Positions 2,583 to 38,713 of a stretch of 64,000 nucleotides of DNA are shown here, piece after piece (position 1 is the stretch's first letter; each line of letters starts with the position of its first letter). The translations under genes were made by a program, and so were the position numbers. The DNA lies in NCBI GenBank assembly GCA_018818885.1, contig JAHIRB010000007.1, positions 121,089 through 185,088 on the forward strand, written 5' to 3'. The notes under the pieces are model-generated. The model saw only the letters and a list, made by a program, of their open reading frames with translations. It had not been told where the DNA came from and did not search any database. The stretch is from Patescibacteria group bacterium. GTDB lineage: Bacteria; Patescibacteriota; Patescibacteriia; Buchananbacterales; SURF-54.

Positions 2583-3551
2583 TTAGATGAAATCAATATT
2601 TGATTCTTTCTCAGGATGTTTGATATGATATAACAATTTATTTATTTCGTGATTTTTGCAACAGACCTGGCAGTCGGTATTGACTAACTTACATTTTTTT
2701 ATTTCTTTTCTTTTCTCTCCTGACCAGATATCTAAAAAACTATCCTTATATAAATTACCTAAAATGTATCCTTTTTTTCCTAACTTGTACATGCAGACGT
2801 TGACATCACCATTGTAATCAATAACTGGGCAGAAAAAATGTCCATAACAAACATCATAGCTACGTGGCTGAACACTGTCTGCAAATTTGTATTCAGAAAG
2901 AAAAATTTTAAACTTATCATCTTCTAATTCTTTTAATTTTTCTGGCACTTCGAATTTAGGTTGTTCTTTGTACAATTTTGCCAAGGCAGGTCTGACCTGA
3001 AAATAATCCACCCCTAACTCTTTCGCCTCTTTTGCGTATTTATAAGCGTCGTCGTAGTTTTCTTTTGTGATATTCAAACATATACCAATTGGTGTTTTAG
3101 AATCTACATATTCCTTAAGTAATTTTTTATCAATGCCATCCATGTATTTCTCAGTTAAAGATATTCTTATCCATTCAAAGTATTCAGGATCAACTCTGTT
3201 CTTTTCGTAATCAAGTGCATTTGTAAATAAACCTTGGGAATAACCTAGGCTATTAGCATGTTTAGCAAATTCATTAAAATTTGGATGCAGGGTTGGTTCT
3301 CCCCCGCCAGTCCAAGATATTGCCTTAACTCCAGCAGATGAAAGTTGGGAAAGAGTTTTTAGCATCACTTCTTTATCAATTTTTTCTCCGTTCTTATTAC
3401 CAGCGTAGAAACACCATGGACACTCAGCATTACAATAATTAGTTGGTGCTATTTCAATCAACACAGGCATAGCATCTCCGCTTTTTAGCCAGGCATTAAT
3501 TTTATCCCAATGCCAGAGAAGTTTCATTTGTGGGTTAAAAATAACTTTCAT
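2583..3551 (-). CDS. Radical SAM protein with C-terminal SPASM/twitch-like cysteine cluster
   Basis: CNAECPWC (CxxxCxxC) near N-terminus. C-terminal Cys-rich segment (CMYKL...CKLVNTDCQVCCKNHE). Confidence 0.75.
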   Translation of the reverse strand: MKVIFNPQMKLLWHWDKINAWLKSGDAMPVLIEIAPTNYCNAECPWCFYAGNKNGEKIDKEVMLKTLSQLSSAGVKAISWTGGGEPTLHPNFNEFAKHANSLGYSQGLFTNALDYEKNRVDPEYFEWIRISLTEKYMDGIDKKLLKEYVDSKTPIGICLNITKENYDDAYKYAKEAKELGVDYFQVRPALAKLYKEQPKFEVPEKLKELEDDKFKIFLSEYKFADSVQPRSYDVCYGHFFCPVIDYNGDVNVCMYKLGKKGYILGNLYKDSFLDIWSGEKRKEIKKCKLVNTDCQVCCKNHEINKLLYHIKHPEKESNIDFI

Positions 3552-4329
3552 GTATGTATTCTTTTAATGCTTTTTTATAAGGTCTTAATAATTTGCTTTT
3601 AGAAGAAGAATCGCGGCATCTTGGCGCGATATCTTTATATTTATTATCGATATAAAAATTTGGTTTTTTGCCTACTATCTTAGCAATTTCATTTGCCAGC
3701 TCCCATCTAGTGACTCTTCCTTGGTTAGTAGCCTCATATACACCATATTTCTTTTTTTTGTAGTATTCTATACAGAGTTTTACTAAGTCTTTTGAATAAG
3801 TTGGTGAACTCCACCGATTGTTTGTAACACCAATTTTCTTATTTTTATCTAATACAGACAGTATATATTCTACAAAATTTTCATGTTTTTGTCCAGTCTT
3901 ACCAAATAAAATATCTGTTTTAAAAACATAGTATTTTTTCATATCTAAGCTTTTAGGTATTTCTGAAGAAACTTTTTTTGTAAATGCATAGATGTTAGTG
4001 ATTTCTTGATCGACTGTTGAACCTATATGCATAAACTCAATCTCATGTTCAAGACAAGCCAATGCCATATAATAAGGTGCTAGTATGTTAAGATTGATTG
4101 CTTTTTGCTTATTTGTTTGACAAAAATCAATATTAGATATGCCAGTACAATTTATAACCAAATCGTACTTATTAGTAATAATTTTTGACACATCTGCTTT
4201 TTTCGTAACATCACATTTATTCTTTTTCGGTAACACCAAACTATAACCTAATTTTTTAAATTGACGGACGAATTCTGAACCTAACTTTCCCGTACTTCCA
4301 AATATTAAAATTTTTTTCTTTTTTGTCAT
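3535..4329 (-). CDS. NAD(P)-dependent sugar nucleotide reductase/epimerase, RmlD-like
   Basis: GSTGKLG Rossmann motif; SPTYSKDLV region resembles the dTDP-4-dehydrorhamnose reductase family. Overlaps the upstream gene by 17 bp, so it sits in the operon. Confidence 0.6.
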   Translation of the reverse strand: MTKKKKILIFGSTGKLGSEFVRQFKKLGYSLVLPKKNKCDVTKKADVSKIITNKYDLVINCTGISNIDFCQTNKQKAINLNILAPYYMALACLEHEIEFMHIGSTVDQEITNIYAFTKKVSSEIPKSLDMKKYYVFKTDILFGKTGQKHENFVEYILSVLDKNKKIGVTNNRWSSPTYSKDLVKLCIEYYKKKKYGVYEATNQGRVTRWELANEIAKIVGKKPNFYIDNKYKDIAPRCRDSSSKSKLLRPYKKALKEYIHESYF

Positions 4330-4332
4330 ATT

Positions 4333-5892
4333 TTAAATCTTTGATTCTTTAACGGTTAATACCCTTAATAAAAACTTTATGTTTTGTAATATTTTAATTG
4401 GAGAACCCAATAGATACTGCACCACTCCTAATATTGCTAAGTACCGTTCTTTAAATTTATTCATAAATGATCGCTTGCCTGGATCCCCAATTCTGACTAT
4501 GTGTTGACGAATGAGTACACGACTTAGATAGTGATCTTTATTTTTTAGTGATTCTTTGATTACATGTGGCAAAACTTTTTCGTGCGGAATGTTTTCATAT
4601 ATTGGAATATGAACCGGCGCTGAAAGTAAATAATTTCTGGAATTGTTGTAATTTTTTACCCAAGAAAAATTTAGTTGTCCTTGTTCTTTTGCTACTTGTT
4701 CTAAAGGGCTACCAGGATAAATGCGTAAAGGCGTAAGACCTCCAGCTTGGATTAAATATTTTCTAAGCTTATGATGCTGTTTGATATTTTCTGTCAGGTC
4801 ATCCAAGGTTTCCCCAGGACTTTCTATTAAAACTCCGCCTCGAACAATTATTTTATTATTATGAAGTATTTCTAAAGCCTTCCAAGTTTGTTCTACTGTG
4901 ATTTTTTTGTTCATTAGTTTTAAAGTATGATTGCTGAGATTTTCAATTCCTAATGTGATCATCCTGCCGCCACTTTCGTAAATCAACTTAGCTGTTTCAT
5001 CATCTAAAGCATCAATGCGAGCCAAGCAAGCATACCTGATCTTCTTATCTAAATTCTTTAAGCCATTGGCCAGCTCAAAAAACCATTTTTTATCTGCTAT
5101 CAAATGGTCGTCTTGAAAAACAAAATCATAAATGCCTCTATCGATATAATACTTGACGTGCCTGATGGCGTTTTCAGGACTTATATTTCTTAATGTTCTG
5201 TGCCACATGGCATCTGCGGAACAAAACGTACAATTATACGGACAACCCCTGGCAAAGATCAAATTTGCCATTGGCCTGTTTGAACGTGACTGCTTGACAA
5301 ACTCAATTGTTTCTAAATTATCAAACGCTTTATCTGTTGGTAAATACGACTTATATTGATTTATCTTTGTCATTTCGTAATCTGGCATTGGTAAGTCGTT
5401 TAGATCTTTTATTAGTTCAGCATTTTTATTTATTATGATTTCATTGTTTTGACGATACGTGATACCTTTAATATTTTTAAAAGATGAATTATTTTTTACT
5501 GCTTCTATTATTTCTGCTATTGTTATTTCTCCTTCGTGACGGACTACAATATCGACAAAATCCAGTTCTTTGATAATCTCTTTGTGCACCATGGTAGGAA
5601 AAGGTCCTCCCATAATGACTAAACTCTCTGGTAATGTTTCTTTGGCAATTTTGGCTGTATTAATACCTGCGAGTCGATCTTCTGCATTACTACTTATTCC
5701 GATAATATCTGGCTTAGTTTGCAGTAACCTAGTTTTAAAATCATCCTGAGATGGATCCTCCAAATATGCATCTTGATAAATAACTTCACAACCTTTTTGC
5801 TTGGCAATAGTTGCAATATACAAAGGCCCAATGGGTGGTAAAATATGTTTTTCTCCGTAATATCCAACCGGATTTGTAATAAAAAATTTCAT
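4333..5892 (-). CDS. Cobalamin-binding radical SAM enzyme
   Basis: 519 aa. B12-binding-like N-terminus. ARGCPYNCTFCSAD motif. Confidence 0.85.
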   Translation of the reverse strand: MKFFITNPVGYYGEKHILPPIGPLYIATIAKQKGCEVIYQDAYLEDPSQDDFKTRLLQTKPDIIGISSNAEDRLAGINTAKIAKETLPESLVIMGGPFPTMVHKEIIKELDFVDIVVRHEGEITIAEIIEAVKNNSSFKNIKGITYRQNNEIIINKNAELIKDLNDLPMPDYEMTKINQYKSYLPTDKAFDNLETIEFVKQSRSNRPMANLIFARGCPYNCTFCSADAMWHRTLRNISPENAIRHVKYYIDRGIYDFVFQDDHLIADKKWFFELANGLKNLDKKIRYACLARIDALDDETAKLIYESGGRMITLGIENLSNHTLKLMNKKITVEQTWKALEILHNNKIIVRGGVLIESPGETLDDLTENIKQHHKLRKYLIQAGGLTPLRIYPGSPLEQVAKEQGQLNFSWVKNYNNSRNYLLSAPVHIPIYENIPHEKVLPHVIKESLKNKDHYLSRVLIRQHIVRIGDPGKRSFMNKFKERYLAILGVVQYLLGSPIKILQNIKFLLRVLTVKESKI

Positions 5893-7106
5893 TACTTCTT
5901 GTTTATTAATTCTTGATAAGCATCTTTCATTCTTTGTGCTAATACTCTGTATTCATGATTTTTAATAATGTAATCACGAGAACTTTTGCCATATTCATTA
6001 ATTAGACTTTGGTTGTTTACAAATTTTTCTATAGCTTCTGCAAGTTCATTAACATTGCCATGTTCAACTGGAATACCAAGCTTTTTTTGTTCAAAATCGT
6101 GCGTATCATAATCTTTAGCTAATATTACGGGTTTTGACATTGACATTGCTTCTACATGAGCTTTATACAAGCCAAACTGTCCTAAAGCATCAAGCACAAA
6201 CACATCACAAATTGATAAGTAATCTAACCTTTCATCCCCTACTACTTTTCCAACAAATTCTATTTTTTTATTTTGACTAGCTAATTTTTTAAAATCTTCT
6301 ACTGTAGATTTAGCACCTTCGCCAGCAATAATTAGTTTGACGTTTTGATGTTTCTGGCATAGTTGATTGAATGCTTGAATTAAATAATGAGTTCCTTTTC
6401 TCTTGGAAACCATGCTTAAAAATAAAAAAGTTATTACATTTGGGTTTTTTCTAAATTTTGACTGGTATGTAGGATCAAATTTTTCTGAATCTACTGCCAT
6501 GGGAATTGATACAAACTTTGACTGATATCCTTTTTCTTTAAGATCTGTTTCAATTTTTGTTTCGCGCATTCCATATACATCGACACTACGTGGAAAATTT
6601 TCGTCTTTAATGAAAAGTTGGTAAAAATATTTAGAAAATTTATTAAATATTTTTTCAAAAAAACTGTATGTAGGTTTTATTGAAATTTCTTCCCATTTTT
6701 TTTGACGATCGTAATTTATGTCACCCAGAAAATTTTTATCTTCGTAATCGTACGGAAGGTCCGCAGTAGAAACAAATGGTTTAATTTTAAACTTAGAATA
6801 TGGATGAGGGCCATTTGTTGGTGCCAGATGAATAATATCAATTTTTTTAAAAAAAACTATTGGTAAAGAATAAAAAAATGTTTTAAGCATGTAGGGCTTG
6901 GTAAAATTTGGTTGTTTCTTGCAACCAGGTACAGTATAAATTTTAATATTAGGGTGTAACTTATTTTCTATAATTTCTGTAAAAGTAGAAACAACAAAAA
7001 TTTTCACACCTAATTTTGCAAGAGCATTTGAAAGACCCCAGGTTCCTTGTGATTCTCCCCCAACGTGGGTATCAGAGAAAATATGAGTTAGAAATAGTAT
7101 ATTCAC
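5892..7106 (-). CDS. Glycosyltransferase, GT-B fold (GT4-like)
   Basis: 404 aa. C-terminal GT1/GT4-type region (KVVGDERL...DVFVLDALGQFGL...EAMSMSKPVI). Confidence 0.55.
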   Translation of the reverse strand: MNILFLTHIFSDTHVGGESQGTWGLSNALAKLGVKIFVVSTFTEIIENKLHPNIKIYTVPGCKKQPNFTKPYMLKTFFYSLPIVFFKKIDIIHLAPTNGPHPYSKFKIKPFVSTADLPYDYEDKNFLGDINYDRQKKWEEISIKPTYSFFEKIFNKFSKYFYQLFIKDENFPRSVDVYGMRETKIETDLKEKGYQSKFVSIPMAVDSEKFDPTYQSKFRKNPNVITFLFLSMVSKRKGTHYLIQAFNQLCQKHQNVKLIIAGEGAKSTVEDFKKLASQNKKIEFVGKVVGDERLDYLSICDVFVLDALGQFGLYKAHVEAMSMSKPVILAKDYDTHDFEQKKLGIPVEHGNVNELAEAIEKFVNNQSLINEYGKSSRDYIIKNHEYRVLAQRMKDAYQELINKK

Positions 7107-7138
7107 TTGACAGTTTTAATTAATTATGTTATTATAAT
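7107..7138 (+). promoter_or_regulatory. Candidate sigma70-type promoter for the plus-strand gene
   Basis: TTGACA at 7107-7112, 17-nt spacer, TATTAT at 7130-7135. A GGAGG box at 7185-7189 precedes the ORF. Confidence 0.35.
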
Positions 7139-7182
7139 TAGTCTATTTAGACAATAAATTGATATTTGACAATTAAACGAAA

Positions 7183-7971
7183 TTGGAGGTGATTGAATTG
7201 GCCGAAAAAAAGATTGTAAAAAATTCTGTGGTGATAGTAACAATCACAATGGTACGAGATCAGGAAGAATACAACAGAATGGTGTCAACTCATCGCTCAC
7301 TCTCACAGCTCGCATTAACCAATGACTGGAAAGTGGTAACCGTAAACCGACCAACCAATAGTACTTTCCAAAAAAGATTGGAATATGCATTTGAAGATTT
7401 CAATATTGAAGTCATCAAGTGCACAGAAGGTTCTGTCGGACTTCAGCTGGCCACTGCTTATGTTGAGGGCTCAAAAAGAGCTCAAGATATGGTTTTGTAT
7501 ACTGAAGGTGACAAAACCGATTTTGTTCCATTTATTGGAAAAATACTTGCTCAAGCAGCGGACCACGAACGGATATTCAACACGTCACCTGCAATGTTGG
7601 TGCCAGGCAGAATTAATATGGGTATATATTCTTGTACCCGGAAATCGCCAGAACGGATAACTAACCTCATCCAATCATTTTTGATTGGGACAAAGGGTGA
7701 TTATCAATATGGGCCGAAACTATTTGATCCAAAGATCATCTTGCCACACGAAAAAATAATTATGGATTATGTCAAGAAGCGACCTGGCTGGCAAGTAGCA
7801 ACATGGCTTCCAATTTTTTTAGCCATACGCTATCCTGGTCAAGTAATTCCCTGCCCAATCAACGTACAACCAATGAAAGGCGAAGACAAGAATTTCTTTA
7901 AAGATCTTCGATTTCGTTTCCTTACTCAATTGCGACAAGCAATTGTCGCAATGTGGGATGCGGCGCAATAA
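7183..7971 (+). CDS. Hypothetical protein (GC-richer than its neighbours); true start may be a downstream TTG/GTG
   Basis: 262-aa ORF on the opposite strand to the surrounding operon. Has its own promoter-like boxes and a terminator hairpin. No family recognised. Confidence 0.5.
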   Translation: MEVIELAEKKIVKNSVVIVTITMVRDQEEYNRMVSTHRSLSQLALTNDWKVVTVNRPTNSTFQKRLEYAFEDFNIEVIKCTEGSVGLQLATAYVEGSKRAQDMVLYTEGDKTDFVPFIGKILAQAADHERIFNTSPAMLVPGRINMGIYSCTRKSPERITNLIQSFLIGTKGDYQYGPKLFDPKIILPHEKIIMDYVKKRPGWQVATWLPIFLAIRYPGQVIPCPINVQPMKGEDKNFFKDLRFRFLTQLRQAIVAMWDAAQ

Positions 7972-35371: not shown

Positions 35372-35623
35372 CTATAACAACTTTTTTAATTATTGTCAAT
35401 TTAATGGATAGTTTTGGATATTTTGAGTGTGATATTTCTTTTTTGAAGTTTCCCACTATTGATTGCTGTATTTTATTGAGTTATAATGAAGTTAGAACTT
35501 TTGTCTACGCTAGAGTGGACAAAAGTGAATATTTCGATAATTAACTGCGATACAGCGATAAGAGCGATAGAGTTATTATTCTATATTGCTTTATAACTAT
35601 ATCGCTTTATCGCCTCACTGACT

Positions 35624-35899
35624 ATGCCTAATAACAAAACAATTAGACTTTCTGTTACTGAAGCGGCTAGAATATTTGGTGTTGACCAAAAGACTATCAG
35701 AAGAGCAATAAAAAACCAAGATTTGCGCTATATTGTTGTTATGGGTAGATATAAGATTAATTTTGAAAGCTTACTAAAATGGTCACAGAAAAAACCTCAA
35801 ACAAAAAATAAGCTTGAAAATGATGGAATTGGTAAATATGTGGATAAATGGAAGATTAGAAGTACTCATTATAGCCCTAATCCTCCCAAAAAAGACTAA
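35624..35899 (+). CDS. Small helix-turn-helix DNA-binding protein (excisionase/MerR-like HTH_17)
   Basis: LSVTEAARIFGVDQKTIRRAIKNQDLRY HTH; 91 aa. Immediately upstream of the ncRNA-like region and the RT. Confidence 0.6.
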   Translation: MPNNKTIRLSVTEAARIFGVDQKTIRRAIKNQDLRYIVVMGRYKINFESLLKWSQKKPQTKNKLENDGIGKYVDKWKIRSTHYSPNPPKKD

Positions 35900-36284
35900 T
35901 CGCCGAAGGCTCTCCTCGCTCGACGCCAGCCTCGACGTCTAGCCGGGAAAGTTAAAGCGGGCGTCATCGCCGAGGCAGGCTAAATAACTAAATAAACTAA
36001 AATGACATCTTGTATGTTGTTTTTTGTTTGACTAAATGAATGTGAAGTTTTAAACTAATAATAAGCTGCTTTTATTGTCTTGCTTGATCTGCTTGTCTTA
36101 CAGGCAAGACCGGTCATCTGTGAACGGATGGCTGAATAAACGTAGGCGCTTGAGATGGCCTCGTATGTTTCCAGTTGATTGAAACCACTTAGTAAGCGCG
36201 TTAAACAACGAACGCACTCACAGAGCAGCCCGGGGGGAAACACATTCCCCCCATTTTTTTTGACCTTTAACAAGGAGGCAATCA
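35900..36284 (+). ncRNA. Candidate retron non-coding RNA (msr/msd) region
   Basis: 385 bp with no ORF on the plus strand, GC-richer than the genome, several stem-loops (CGACGCC/GGCGTC; GTCTT-acaggc-AAGAC; GGGGGGAA-acaca-TTCCCCCC plus T-run). Sits directly 5' of a retron-type RT on the same strand. Boundaries and a1/a2 repeats not resolved. Confidence 0.35.
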
Positions 36285-37316
36285 ATGCAGAAAAGCCGAA
36301 AGGATGCAGTGGAAATTCTAGCAAATCTTATGAGATTGCAATCAGATTTTATTTTTGATGCATTGAAAAATAGAAACTATCAACAAATTTTGATTCCTAA
36401 AAGATCTGGCGATGTAAGAAAATTGCACGCACCCGGTGAAGAGTTAAAACTTGTACAGGAAGTAATCCTACAATTTCTTTACCGATGGAAAGTCGATGCA
36501 CGTCAGTTTGGTTTCGTGTTAGGCGGTTCACCAATCAGGAATGCAAAATATCACATTAGAAATGAATTTTACGTTCCGCACTGGGTTCTAAAGCTTGATT
36601 TGGAAAACGCGTTTCCATCAGTTACTTCAACTGTTCTTAGGAAGGAGTACACCCGAGTATTTAACCCAGAAACATTCAAGGAGCTATCAGGAATAGACGA
36701 AAAACAATTTACTGCATTCATCCAACTGATGCTTGATTTAACAACTTACCGAGAGCGACTACCTCAAGGGTCGCCTTGTTCTCCCTACTTGTTGAATTTG
36801 GTATTAGTCTGGACAGGTGTAACAAAAGGTGTTTTGGAGTATTGTGAAAAAAAAGGACTACGTGCTTCCTTGTATGGTGATGATTTCACTATATCTGCCA
36901 AAACAAGTAACATGTGGTTTTCTAAGACATTCTTTAGAAAAATCAATTCAGCGGTTTCACGTAGTGGGTGTCTCAGACTAAATCACGACAAGACTCATCT
37001 AATATGCAGCAGAAACTCCGCGCCAATAATTACTGGCGTAAAAATTACCGAAAGCCACGACAATGGAGCAAAATTAACTCTCACCCAGAGCACACTAAAT
37101 CATTGGAGAGGAGTGATTCATCGAGTTACAGAAATTCTCTACTGGAATAATCGCCTACCAAGGCTGGAACAAGACGGCGTAACATTCAACCAAGCACTCG
37201 GTTATGTCAATTGGATTGAAGATGTCTATAGAGAAAGTGAGGTTCCGCTATCGGTTAGAAAACCAATTAAAAGTTTTAAAGTGCAATCATCAAGATTCGA
37301 TCGTAGGAGAGGTTAG
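36285..37316 (+). CDS. Retron-type reverse transcriptase
   Basis: RT motifs ILIPKRSGDVRKLHAP (1), LDLENAF (2), LPQGSPCSPYLLNLVL (QGxxxSP), LYGDDFTI (YxDD), LNHDKTHL. Retron hallmarks FGFVLGGSPIRNAKYH (NAxxH) and IITGVKI (xTG). AAGGAGG RBS at 36271-36277. No maturase or endonuclease domain. Confidence 0.8.
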   Translation: MQKSRKDAVEILANLMRLQSDFIFDALKNRNYQQILIPKRSGDVRKLHAPGEELKLVQEVILQFLYRWKVDARQFGFVLGGSPIRNAKYHIRNEFYVPHWVLKLDLENAFPSVTSTVLRKEYTRVFNPETFKELSGIDEKQFTAFIQLMLDLTTYRERLPQGSPCSPYLLNLVLVWTGVTKGVLEYCEKKGLRASLYGDDFTISAKTSNMWFSKTFFRKINSAVSRSGCLRLNHDKTHLICSRNSAPIITGVKITESHDNGAKLTLTQSTLNHWRGVIHRVTEILYWNNRLPRLEQDGVTFNQALGYVNWIEDVYRESEVPLSVRKPIKSFKVQSSRFDRRRG

Positions 37317-37398
37317 GATAAAAAAATCCAAAGCCTCTCCTTTTTCATATAAAAAACAGGGGCGGAAAATCCGTTTGGACTCCGTCCCTTTTTTTATA

Positions 37399-37932
37399 CT
37401 ACGCTGCCAACAACTTGACTGAGGGCATTTCACTTATCACGCTGAGTGTTTTTTGCACCTCCTCAGACTCAAGGGGTACTTCTACCCCAAAGCGTAATAT
37501 GTGTCTTCTTTTTCTCTGTGAATGAACGATTACTAAATTGACTTCTTGATCTTTGAATATATTGGCGATATCAGCCAATATTCCCGGCTTGTCTTCCACA
37601 ATCTCTACTGCGATTGAACACTCGGCTGAAAGATCGACCATGAGCTCGTTGAGGTTTTCGCAAAGCTCGAAGGCTTCAACAACCTGTTTGTGCCCCAGGT
37701 ATTCAACTCCGAAATTGAAGTACTCAATAAACTCGCTTTGATCCCCTGTTTTGATCATTCGCTCGATGATCTCTTTAAATCGCTGAGCTTCCTCTATGAG
37801 AATTTCGAGCATTTTGATACTGCCAGGATTTGCTGTTTGGATATCTGCGTAGAGCAAAGCGTCCTGGGCGGAAATCCTCCCGGTTGCAACATTCATTAGC
37901 CGATATATTGGATTTGAAAGCTTGTCGGCCAA
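37399..37932 (-). CDS. ACT-domain-containing protein (start uncertain)
   Basis: C-terminal ACT-like segment (AVEIVEDKPGILADIANIFKDQEVNLVIVHS). Overlaps the 3' end of the next minus-strand ORF, so one of the two start/stop calls is wrong. Confidence 0.45.
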   Translation of the reverse strand: MADKLSNPIYRLMNVATGRISAQDALLYADIQTANPGSIKMLEILIEEAQRFKEIIERMIKTGDQSEFIEYFNFGVEYLGHKQVVEAFELCENLNELMVDLSAECSIAVEIVEDKPGILADIANIFKDQEVNLVIVHSQRKRRHILRFGVEVPLESEEVQKTLSVISEMPSVKLLAA

Positions 37933-38233
37933 ACCAGGATCCCAACCATACTATCAGAATTATGGAAAAGCATATTATTGAAAATATGCCTACAAGTGAT
38001 GGTAGGTTGCTTGCCATACCAATGGATAGAAACAATATCCAAAGAAACACACACATGGCTGTTATGGCCGTTGCACCGAACCAGTAACTGTTCCAGTTAT
38101 CATCCAGCCTGTCTGAGGTATACCTGGAAAGTGGAATTTCTTCTTGCGCTGATTTCTTCGAATTACTTTTTTGCTTTCTCATCTCTATTGCTCCTTGTTT
38201 TTGAATTAGCGTTAAATCAATTACAGCTTTCAA
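37775..38233 (-). CDS. Hypothetical small membrane protein (2 TM); boundaries uncertain
   Basis: TM segments (ITAMCVFLWILFLSI, IFSIICFSIILIVWL). C-terminal third overlaps the ACT ORF in another frame. Confidence 0.3.
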   Translation of the reverse strand: MKAVIDLTLIQKQGAIEMRKQKSNSKKSAQEEIPLSRYTSDRLDDNWNSYWFGATAITAMCVFLWILFLSIGMASNLPSLVGIFSIICFSIILIVWLGSWFGRQAFKSNISANECCNREDFRPGRFALRRYPNSKSWQYQNARNSHRGSSAI

Positions 38234-38239
38234 TAACCA

Positions 38240-38713
38240 CTATTCCAGACCCAAAATAAAGCTGATGATCTTTCCTATTACAGCAAGTATTGGCCAGAGT
38301 ATGTGTATCCAAATCCACGGAACAATTACAAATATTAACCATGCAAGCAAGGCAAGGAATATATAGCCAAAAATAAAGATTGGCCAAAATATTACAGACA
38401 ATGCTTTTCCCGCTTTATATTCCCAATCTTTTATATCTTCTTTTTCATATCTTACGATATTACTGTCTTTTTCATTTAGTAGAAATGCTAAGTCGTCTGG
38501 GAAAGGAGAAATTTTATCTAATATATTTAAACAAAATATATGTGGCTTCAGGATAAGCCAATCGTTTACGTCACCCATGGTTAATAATCTTCCAATCGCA
38601 ATGTAAATTATAATTGCGAGAAGTAAATTACATTTTGTGATCAGAGGTTTTAGTTTTAACATTTCAATTTTGATTTTCATATCCATTTCCTTTTTAATGA
38701 CGCGCTGACACAA
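38240..38713 (-). CDS. Hypothetical membrane protein
   Basis: 157 aa with 3-4 predicted TM helices; AT-rich like the host genome. Confidence 0.45.
   Translation of the reverse strand: MCQRVIKKEMDMKIKIEMLKLKPLITKCNLLLAIIIYIAIGRLLTMGDVNDWLILKPHIFCLNILDKISPFPDDLAFLLNEKDSNIVRYEKEDIKDWEYKAGKALSVIFWPIFIFGYIFLALLAWLIFVIVPWIWIHILWPILAVIGKIISFILGLE

Follow-up and report, generated by a model that had tools for sequence, protein, structure and literature searches.

Retrons are today defined as tripartite defence systems of a toxin-antitoxin-like kind. Stand-alone (msr-msd)-RT cassettes have been noted in reverse transcriptase (RT) clade 2 (Retron-Eco5/Ec107 branch) and in the Actinobacteria-restricted clade 11, their function is unknown, and the role of effector-less retrons was raised as an open question in the classification of 2020 (Mestre et al. 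2020, PMC7736814). In this study a stretch of 64,000 nucleotides from a Patescibacteria group bacterium (contig JAHIRB010000007.1, positions 121,089 to 185,088), which is called the window in what follows, was analysed for a locus where a 91-aa helix-turn-helix (HTH) protein, a structured noncoding RNA (ncRNA) and a retron-type RT of 343 aa are encoded one after the other on the plus strand. We consider that this locus is probably a stand-alone ('orphan', effector-less) retron-like RT-ncRNA cassette, inserted at a variable chromosomal spot beside an HTH gene that is unrelated to it, and, as judged by sequence, the cassette belongs to a divergent, mainly Patescibacteria RT lineage. The closest known concept for it is the orphan retron. 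Like the orphan retrons (Ec107, clade 11), it has the form (ncRNA)-RT without an associated protein gene, its RT has the NAxxH and VTG motifs and its ncRNA is closed by inverted repeats. It differs from them in that it comes from Patescibacteria, that its match to the RT_Ec107-like model (5e-29) is as weak as those to the other type models, and that a separate terminator follows its ncRNA ahead of the RT gene and the ncRNA is duplicated in tandem in some relatives; for Ec107, moreover, the multicopy single-stranded DNA (msDNA) is known.

Type VI retrons, the HTH-associated class, have the gene order ncRNA-SP-HTH(Cro/C1)-RT with an RT of clade 3 (doi 10.1101/2025.10.22.683967; PMC7736814). Their HTH protein is of the Cro/C1 type (cluster cl2_1) and its gene is immediately upstream of or overlaps the RT gene (PMC7736814), and SP is present in only about 27 % of the HTH-bearing type VI loci (doi 10.64898/2026.04.27.721009). 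Those that have been studied experimentally are Retron-Vpa2 (2025, doi 10.1101/2025.10.22.683967) and Retron-Sen3 (2026, doi 10.64898/2026.04.27.721009), and the original prediction, made by reading the letters of the window, which had placed the locus in this class, was out of date in holding that no member had been characterised. In the window, as in Vpa2 and Sen3, a small HTH gene is near a retron-type RT gene and a structured RNA with a1/a2-like pairing is encoded upstream; in those retrons, however, the Cro/C1 HTH gene overlaps the RT gene and a toxic SP is encoded inside the hybrid RNA, while the window has no SP and its HTH gene, of the HTH_17 type, precedes the ncRNA. The RTs of Retron-Eco1 (Ec86), Eco2 (Ec67) and Eco7 (Ec78) (PDB 7v9x, 9i2f and 9kjx) were the top full-length sequence and structure matches of the window RT (TM-score 0.6-0.74), but their identity to it was 17-23 % and their effectors, NDT, Toprim and PtuAB, are absent at the window locus. 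DRT2, a UG2 RT with a ncRNA that carries out neo gene synthesis, is like the window in having one RT gene, a structured ncRNA and no other protein, but it is of a different RT family and the window has no never-ending open reading frame (ORF). No description of retrons in Patescibacteria was found in full-text literature searches.

The RT and its family

ORF calls confirmed the predicted layout of an HTH gene, a 385-bp gap (35900-36284) without a credible ORF and an RT gene, and all of the peptides that had been quoted from the RT (FGFVLGGSPIRNAKYH, IITGVKI, IPKRSG, QGSPCSP and YGDD) were present in its translation. The only candidates on the plus strand of the gap were a 35-aa TTG ORF and ORFs that overlap the flanking genes. 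The assignment of the RT to the retron type, and not to group II, diversity-generating retroelements (DGR) or DRT2, is supported by hidden Markov models (HMMs), motifs, PDB matches and the predicted fold, and agrees with what had been read from its motifs. The RT matched Pfam RVT_1 (E=1.5e-16), and among the PADLOC matches listed (25 of 38) there were retron RT models only, with E-values of 1.3e-36 for II-A, 8e-36 for III-A, 1.7e-32 for VI and 3e-30 for XIII; the bit scores with II-A, III-A and RT_VI were 124.4, 121.5 and 110.8, respectively, the last of which is far below member-level scores. With the NCBIfam models, where all scores were under the curated cutoffs, the RT scored 119 bits for retron_St85_RT, 57 bits for the group II RT/maturase (cutoff 300) and 15.9 bits for Drt2 (E=0.0054, cutoff 390). 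The closest PDB sequences were those of Ec86, Ec83, Ec78 and Ec67. When the AlphaFold (AF2) model of the RT, which was built on 42 relatives (pLDDT 95.7, pTM 0.91), was compared with the PDB by Foldseek, ranks 1-16 were all retron RTs (E 2e-18 to 2e-13) and beyond these were the group II RT GsI-IIC (4e-13), DRT2 (3e-10) and a DGR RT (1e-8), with DRT9 also among the weaker matches. The NAxxH and VTG motifs by which retron RTs are defined (doi 10.64898/2026.05.14.725207) are kept in the window RT as RNAKYH and IITGV, and across 42 family members H90 of NAxxH, G251 of VTG and the aspartates of YxDD were invariant, A87 and T250 were nearly so, and the C-terminal region was conserved. No domain other than the RT was seen in the 343 aa by Pfam or in the AF2 model. 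The group II score and the lack of an Rfam intron match speak against a group II intron, as predicted, and the RT motif, QGSPCSP rather than IGxxxSQ, speaks against a DGR; no repeats of the ncRNA region, as checked for a template repeat and variable repeat pair, were found within 35500-37450 or among the fetched loci.

The window RT is identical to the NCBI entry 'reverse transcriptase family protein [Patescibacteria group bacterium]', which was the sole match in a word-indexed protein search at E<=1e-10, and the RT family was recovered by exhaustive HMMER, not by this search. The exhaustive search gave 46 cluster representatives at E<=1e-30 that were 340-430 aa long and 28-42 % identical to the window RT, with its closest relatives being at most 52 % identical (at most 42 % over the full length). 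Where the hosts were named they were mostly Patescibacteria metagenome-assembled genomes, for example of Portnoybacteria and Buchananbacteria, and the distribution of the family was sparse and patchy. All 42 members tested matched every retron type model about equally, with the best E-value near 1e-41. By these low and near-equal scores on all of the type models, the family is retron-like yet clearly outside the type-level models. A phage origin of the cassette was rejected, as IMG/VR had no family member at 33 % identity or above.

The ncRNA upstream of the RT gene

The gap between the two genes was more stable than its dinucleotide shuffles (z=-3.4), and conservation in relatives was confined to its 3' 198 nt, for which the folding z-score was -5.0. 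Thus, the part of the predicted structured noncoding gap that stood is 36064-36261, a conserved structured RNA, whereas its 5' part, 35900-36027, is not conserved and consists of a unique GC-rich hairpin and an AT-rich spacer, the closest relative, L170, being without it. By nhmmer the window from about 36066 to 36280 matched regions 5' of the RTs in two related loci (L007 and L005), and no match was found within the gap in Rfam 15. The promoter-like site ends 7 nt 5' of the ncRNA. The hairpin GGGGGGAA-acaca-TTCCCCCC and the AAGGAGG ribosome-binding site (RBS) that had been pointed out are indeed present, the former at 36232-36252, followed by T8, and the terminator-like hairpin is 24 nt 5' of the codon at which the RT starts. 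The whole cassette is compact, with about 1.3 kb for promoter, ncRNA, terminator and RT. Coordinates of all features are given in Table 1.

Table 1. Features of the RT-ncRNA locus, in window coordinates
Feature	Coordinates	Strand	Basis
HTH_17/excisionase-family DNA-binding gene, 91 aa	35624..35899	+	Pfam HTH_17 4.7e-9, TIGR01764 5.9e-7
GC-rich hairpin after the HTH stop codon	35900..35985	+	inverted repeat and fold; not conserved
Sigma70-like promoter of the ncRNA, TTGACT-N17-TAAACT	36028..36056	+	sequence; transcription start putative
Conserved structured ncRNA, ~198 nt, candidate msr-msd	36064..36261	+	fold, 15 homologous copies, covariation
a1 GCUGCUUU, 5' strand of closing stem P1	36065..36072	+	pairs with 36222-36229
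P2 hairpin, length varies among relatives	36077..36110	+	minimum free energy folds
P3, conserved 10-bp hairpin CGGUCAUCUG-UGAA-CGGAUGGCUG	36111..36134	+	100 % of cells paired
Variable hairpins and P5, candidate template (msd-like) region	36140..36221	+	minimum free energy folds; template role putative
a2 AGAGCAGC, 3' strand of P1	36222..36229	+	pairing with a1, covariation
Intrinsic-terminator-like hairpin GGGGGGAA/UUCCCCCC and U8	36232..36261	+	terminator scoring; homologous in 15/15 copies
CTTTAACAA motif and RBS of the RT (AAGGAGG 36272-36278)	36265..36278	+	sequence
Retron-type RT, 343 aa, catalytic YGDD	36285..37316	+	HMMs, PDB sequence matches, AF2, Foldseek
Pair of terminator-like hairpins 3' of the RT stop codon	37305..37397		read from sequence

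Upstream DNA was collected for 12 core-family RTs, and three copies were added later, one from L170 and, from L084 and L164, the upstream copy of each. The 12 RNAs were each cut from just past the promoter-like site to the U-tract, and when minimum free energy (MFE) folds were made independently, the layout P1(a1/a2)-P2-P3-variable-P5-terminator was obtained in 15 of 15 copies (12 + 3). P1 joins the first nucleotides of the RNA (a1) to those directly 5' of the terminator (a2), so that the a1/a2 inverted repeats which the original prediction had proposed to look for by folding were found, and inside this stem there are 1-3 variable hairpins in a region whose length was about 85 to 240 nt among the relatives and which ends in a conserved G (36223) before a2; in the alignment (column 45) all 12 copies have the G just 5' of a2. 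P3 was nearly invariant in the core loci (GGUCRUCUG-N3-4-CRGAYGGCU), it was present 5' of every core-family RT with no second site in the window, and it is a candidate for the element that the RT recognises. The GGGAGG-loop-CCUCCC hairpin and the U-rich tract behind it were found in 15/15 copies, a TTGACT-N16-18-TAnnnT promoter 3-12 nt before the RNA 5' end in 13/15, and 3' of the terminator the order in the 12 core loci was a CTTTAACAA-like motif, an AAGGAG RBS and the start codon.

When the raw ncRNAs were aligned with MAFFT and analysed with RNAalifold, only P3 and the terminator were recovered and the variable hairpins misaligned a1; because of this, the MFE folds, an alignment by modules and a test of cognate against non-cognate pairs were used. 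In the module alignment 92.6 % of the cells paired compared to 75.6 % in shuffles and 33-48 % in slid controls, and 17 of the 28 pairs were changed on both sides, which was matched by none of 500 shuffles. Every cell of P3 was paired, and this helix had 4 covarying pairs as well as conserved G-U pairs, and therefore the plus strand is the RNA strand. In the swap control, a full 6-bp a1/a2 match in a 20-nt window at the RNA 5' end was found for 13 of 15 cognate combinations compared to 5.8 % of the non-cognate ones. A compensatory change in P1 was seen even with the closest relative, which has AACUGCU/AGCAGUU in L170 compared to (A)GCUGCU/AGCAGC(C) in the window.

Two complete and different ncRNA genes were found in tandem before a single RT in L084 (600-776 and 834-1019; also in L085) and in L164 (2442-2714 and 2746-2975). 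Each of these copies has its own promoter, its own a1/a2 pair of different sequence and its own terminator, and P3 and the next hairpin are almost identical between the two L084 copies. These tandem genes argue for a discrete RNA product, and they bear on the explanation that the ncRNA is a cis-acting leader or transcription attenuator that controls RT expression and is not a template. A terminator-like hairpin so close to the RT start codon, with no space for another promoter, would fit a leader, and the CTTTAACAA motif, like the conserved GGGAGG/CCUCCC arms, suggests regulation. However, a conserved alternative (antiterminator) pairing was not seen, complete ncRNAs, each with a promoter and a terminator, stand twice before one RT in L084 and L164, the a1/a2-closed layout with several hairpins fits RT template RNAs, and the RT requires a template for which there is no other candidate nearby. 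We regard a leader as quite unlikely.

The closing stem also bears on an RT-only system like DRT2 or DRT9, in which the cDNA copied from the ncRNA, for example as a concatemeric gene or a homopolymer, would itself be the effector and neither a protein partner nor a branched msDNA would be involved. A stand-alone RT with a structured ncRNA and no conserved neighbour is what such a system has, a stem that joins both ends of the putative template has the geometry for the template jumping of DRT2, and the RTs of both systems were among the weaker structural matches. However, the window RT is outside the UG/DRT family by its Drt2 score and by its structural match (3e-10 compared to 2e-18 for retrons), it keeps the retron-specific NAxxH and VTG, and a stop-free frame over the concatenated P1-closed loop, the whole loop being the only repeat unit tested, occurred in 2 of 13 loci, which is the chance level. 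Thus, the DRT2 alternative that the original prediction had left standing was not supported, and an RT-only system of this kind is unlikely.

Some further observations were made on these motifs and on RNAs outside the core family. In IMG/VR the P3 pattern had 22 matches, which by a rough estimate is about the chance number, and all were without a terminator or a nearby RT. The type VI retron of Ca. Levybacteria that had been tested in a retron census was rejected as a family member since its ncRNA is without P3. All core loci have the CTTTAACAA-like motif (36265-36273 in the window) between the terminator and the RT RBS, and it recurs in L011 and L012, two distant loci whose upstream RNA otherwise differs. 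There is a distant Patescibacteria RT subfamily at 28-30 % identity (L014, L015, L089, L094 and L142), of which L014, L089, L094 and L142 are mutually syntenic beside a pheS-like gene, and L014 and L015 have their own conserved upstream RNA, CAACCGGGCTAGA...GGCGGTTGGCAGAA, which is different from the core-family ncRNA. The synteny beside pheS and the common upstream RNA suggest that this subfamily is vertically inherited.

The HTH gene and the chromosomal site

When all ORFs within about 3 kb at 32 related loci were compared against each other, no shared cluster of non-RT genes was found beyond the synteny of near-identical genomes, and the neighbours at these loci included dnaK-, gyrB- and purD-like genes. 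As for the HTH gene itself, its protein is of the HTH_17/excisionase type, had no HTH_3 match and no PADLOC retron accessory match, and has 713 homologues across Patescibacteria, many at 60-90 % identity. Tblastn found the HTH gene beside none of the other RT loci then searched, and of the 13 other core-family RT loci that were looked at in all, 12 lacked it, the exception being the close relative L170/L171, where the site is the same. In two other genomes (L168 and L169) the same neighbourhood is kept, but the gene that follows the HTH gene is purA (6490-7782 and 4962-6263, respectively) and not the RT; the order there is a large surface protein, DUF5667, ECF sigma and HTH, and beyond purA a PDZ protease and DUF5656, onward to Band_7. 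The place that purA takes in L168 and L169 is taken in the window by the ncRNA-RT cassette, an ACT fragment, small ORFs and a TrmB-family regulator, and by this comparison the interval between the conserved HTH and PDZ-protease genes is a variable region. In L170/L171 the ncRNA-RT cassette is at the same place and identity to the window is about 80 % in the flanks but 63 % in the RT region (DNA), and therefore the cassette evolves independently of the HTH gene. Since the HTH gene is kept without the RT, is absent at other RT loci and the cassette diverges separately, their adjacency is positional, and by its distribution the HTH gene is a conserved Patescibacteria core or housekeeping gene, a bystander that is not part of the RT system.

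These results decide on the type VI retron that the order HTH, ncRNA, RT had suggested, in which the HTH protein would be an antitoxin or regulator with the RT and the ncRNA, as in Retron-Vpa2 and Retron-Sen3. The HTH gene is directly upstream on the same strand, the same order recurs in one related genome (L170/L171), and RT_VI was among the PADLOC matches of the RT. However, the HTH protein is of the wrong type and not Cro/C1, the sigma-DUF5667-HTH synteny is retained when purA replaces the RT, there is no SP ORF in the gap and the gene order is unlike ncRNA-SP-HTH-RT, and RT_VI is not the top model, all of the type models being equally weak. A type VI retron is therefore highly improbable here, and the class assignment of the original prediction did not hold. 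That there is no common neighbour in 32 loci and that the HTH gene is unrelated leads to the reading of the cassette as stand-alone, and neither as type VI nor as DRT2. As an observation apart, at L025, a Parcubacteria locus with a distant RT (32 % identity in its N-terminal part), there is upstream on the opposite strand a true HTH_3 gene of the Cro/C1 type (3418-3624, minus strand); this is possibly a genuine type VI-like arrangement, unlike the window.

The surroundings of the cassette raise the explanation that it is what is left of a horizontally acquired element, decaying and without function at present. From 35.9 to 38.25 kb, that is the cassette and the next 1 kb, the GC content is 0.38-0.48 compared to about 0.30 in the flanks, a truncated PDH_C/ACT ORF adjoins the cassette, the RT family is sparse and patchy, and in L170 the RT (2735-3773) is split into ORFs of 184 aa and 170 aa by a frameshift or an assembly error, with the ncRNA intact. 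On the other side, the RT in the window is of full length, none of its catalytic motifs is missing and its fold is predicted with confidence, compensatory changes maintain the ncRNA stems even between the window and L170, and promoter, terminator and RBS are intact by sequence. A remnant is very unlikely on this evidence. No att-like direct repeats longer than 10 nt were found around the GC-rich block.

The ORF at 37399-37932 (minus strand, GC 0.43) encodes PDH_C and ACT, the C-terminal parts of a prephenate dehydrogenase, but not the rest of it, and is probably a gene fragment. A 152-aa ORF at 37775-38233 (minus strand) overlaps it and has two hydrophobic stretches, the ORFs of the window downstream of the RT include two small hydrophobic ones, and the gene calls around 37399-38233 differ between the two assemblies with the locus (L003 and L004). 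The ORFs 37399-37932, 37775-38233 and 38240-38713 were considered as local effectors and rejected; they are beside the RT in no relative and are without defence-related domains. The hairpin at 35900-35985 has a GC content above 60 % in a genome of about 30 % GC, and no second copy of it was found in the window or the compared loci; in L170 the HTH gene has an ordinary terminator instead. The terminator-like hairpins after the RT had only ceN80 and AaHKsRNA41 as Rfam matches, which were far below the gathering score and at chance level. Between the divergent ECF-sigma and HTH genes, at 35547-35613, there are nested 14-nt inverted repeats, GCGATACAGCGATA/TATCGCTTTATCGC and AGCGATAGAGTTAT/ATAACTATATCGCT, that look like an operator. 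The large ORFs of the window are nearly all on the minus strand, the HTH-RT pair being among the few plus-strand units, and ARAGORN found no tRNA gene in the 64-kb window.

A probable stand-alone cassette

Several points weigh against taking this cassette as a retron without an effector. Canonical retrons need an effector, and a classical effector or a fused effector domain was found neither in the window RT nor as a shared neighbour at the 32 loci, as had been predicted for the adjacent genes. To our knowledge retrons have not been described with a terminator that separates the ncRNA from the RT gene. A single long msd-type hairpin was absent from the ncRNA folds. In the window, as in L087 and L170, a1 is followed by U, whereas 8 of the first 12 aligned copies have a G at this place, where the priming (branching) G of a retron would be. 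The a1 segments of the module alignment were located partly by complementarity, which is mitigated by the MFE folds and the swap control. Finally, with the retron RT models the family scored 100-140 bits whereas canonical retron RTs in the same search scored 240-390 bits, and the family may therefore be a sister group of retrons with a different chemistry.

A mechanism by which the cassette could work is the following. The ncRNA would be made in excess as its own transcript, and, since a separate promoter does not fit before the RT gene, translation of the RT would depend entirely on transcripts that read through the terminator. The RT would bind the ncRNA, probably via P3, and, by analogy with retrons, may start cDNA at the inner end of the a1/a2 stem, so that the variable region 5' of a2 would be copied into an msDNA-like product. 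This product might act via a partner encoded in trans or through the complex of RT, RNA and cDNA itself. By the same analogy we consider a role in defence or conflict the most likely one for the cassette.

A bolder and more doubtful proposal is that these RTs form a Patescibacteria-centred sister lineage of retrons which has no protein effector, in which a self-sufficient RT and a terminator-capped ncRNA would have the cDNA or the ribonucleoprotein as their output. The ncRNA in such a lineage would be separately transcribed and sometimes present as two different copies.

What the stand-alone cassette offers is a compact and clearly delimited case from ultra-small, host-dependent bacteria in which the RNA helices are backed by covariation. 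It corrects a tempting mis-annotation, in which 'HTH + RT' is taken as a type VI retron, and P3 together with the a1/a2 rules gives a search handle for a ncRNA family without an Rfam entry. Should the RT prove active, its small size (343 aa), its short ncRNA and its origin in a distant lineage could make it interesting as an editing tool. With the locus it could be tested whether msDNA is produced by a retron-type RT that has no partner, and whether such an RT has any effect alone, and if the proposal of an effector-less sister lineage is true, it would mean either that retron immunity exists in a form reduced along with the genome or that msDNA has a use other than defence in these bacteria.

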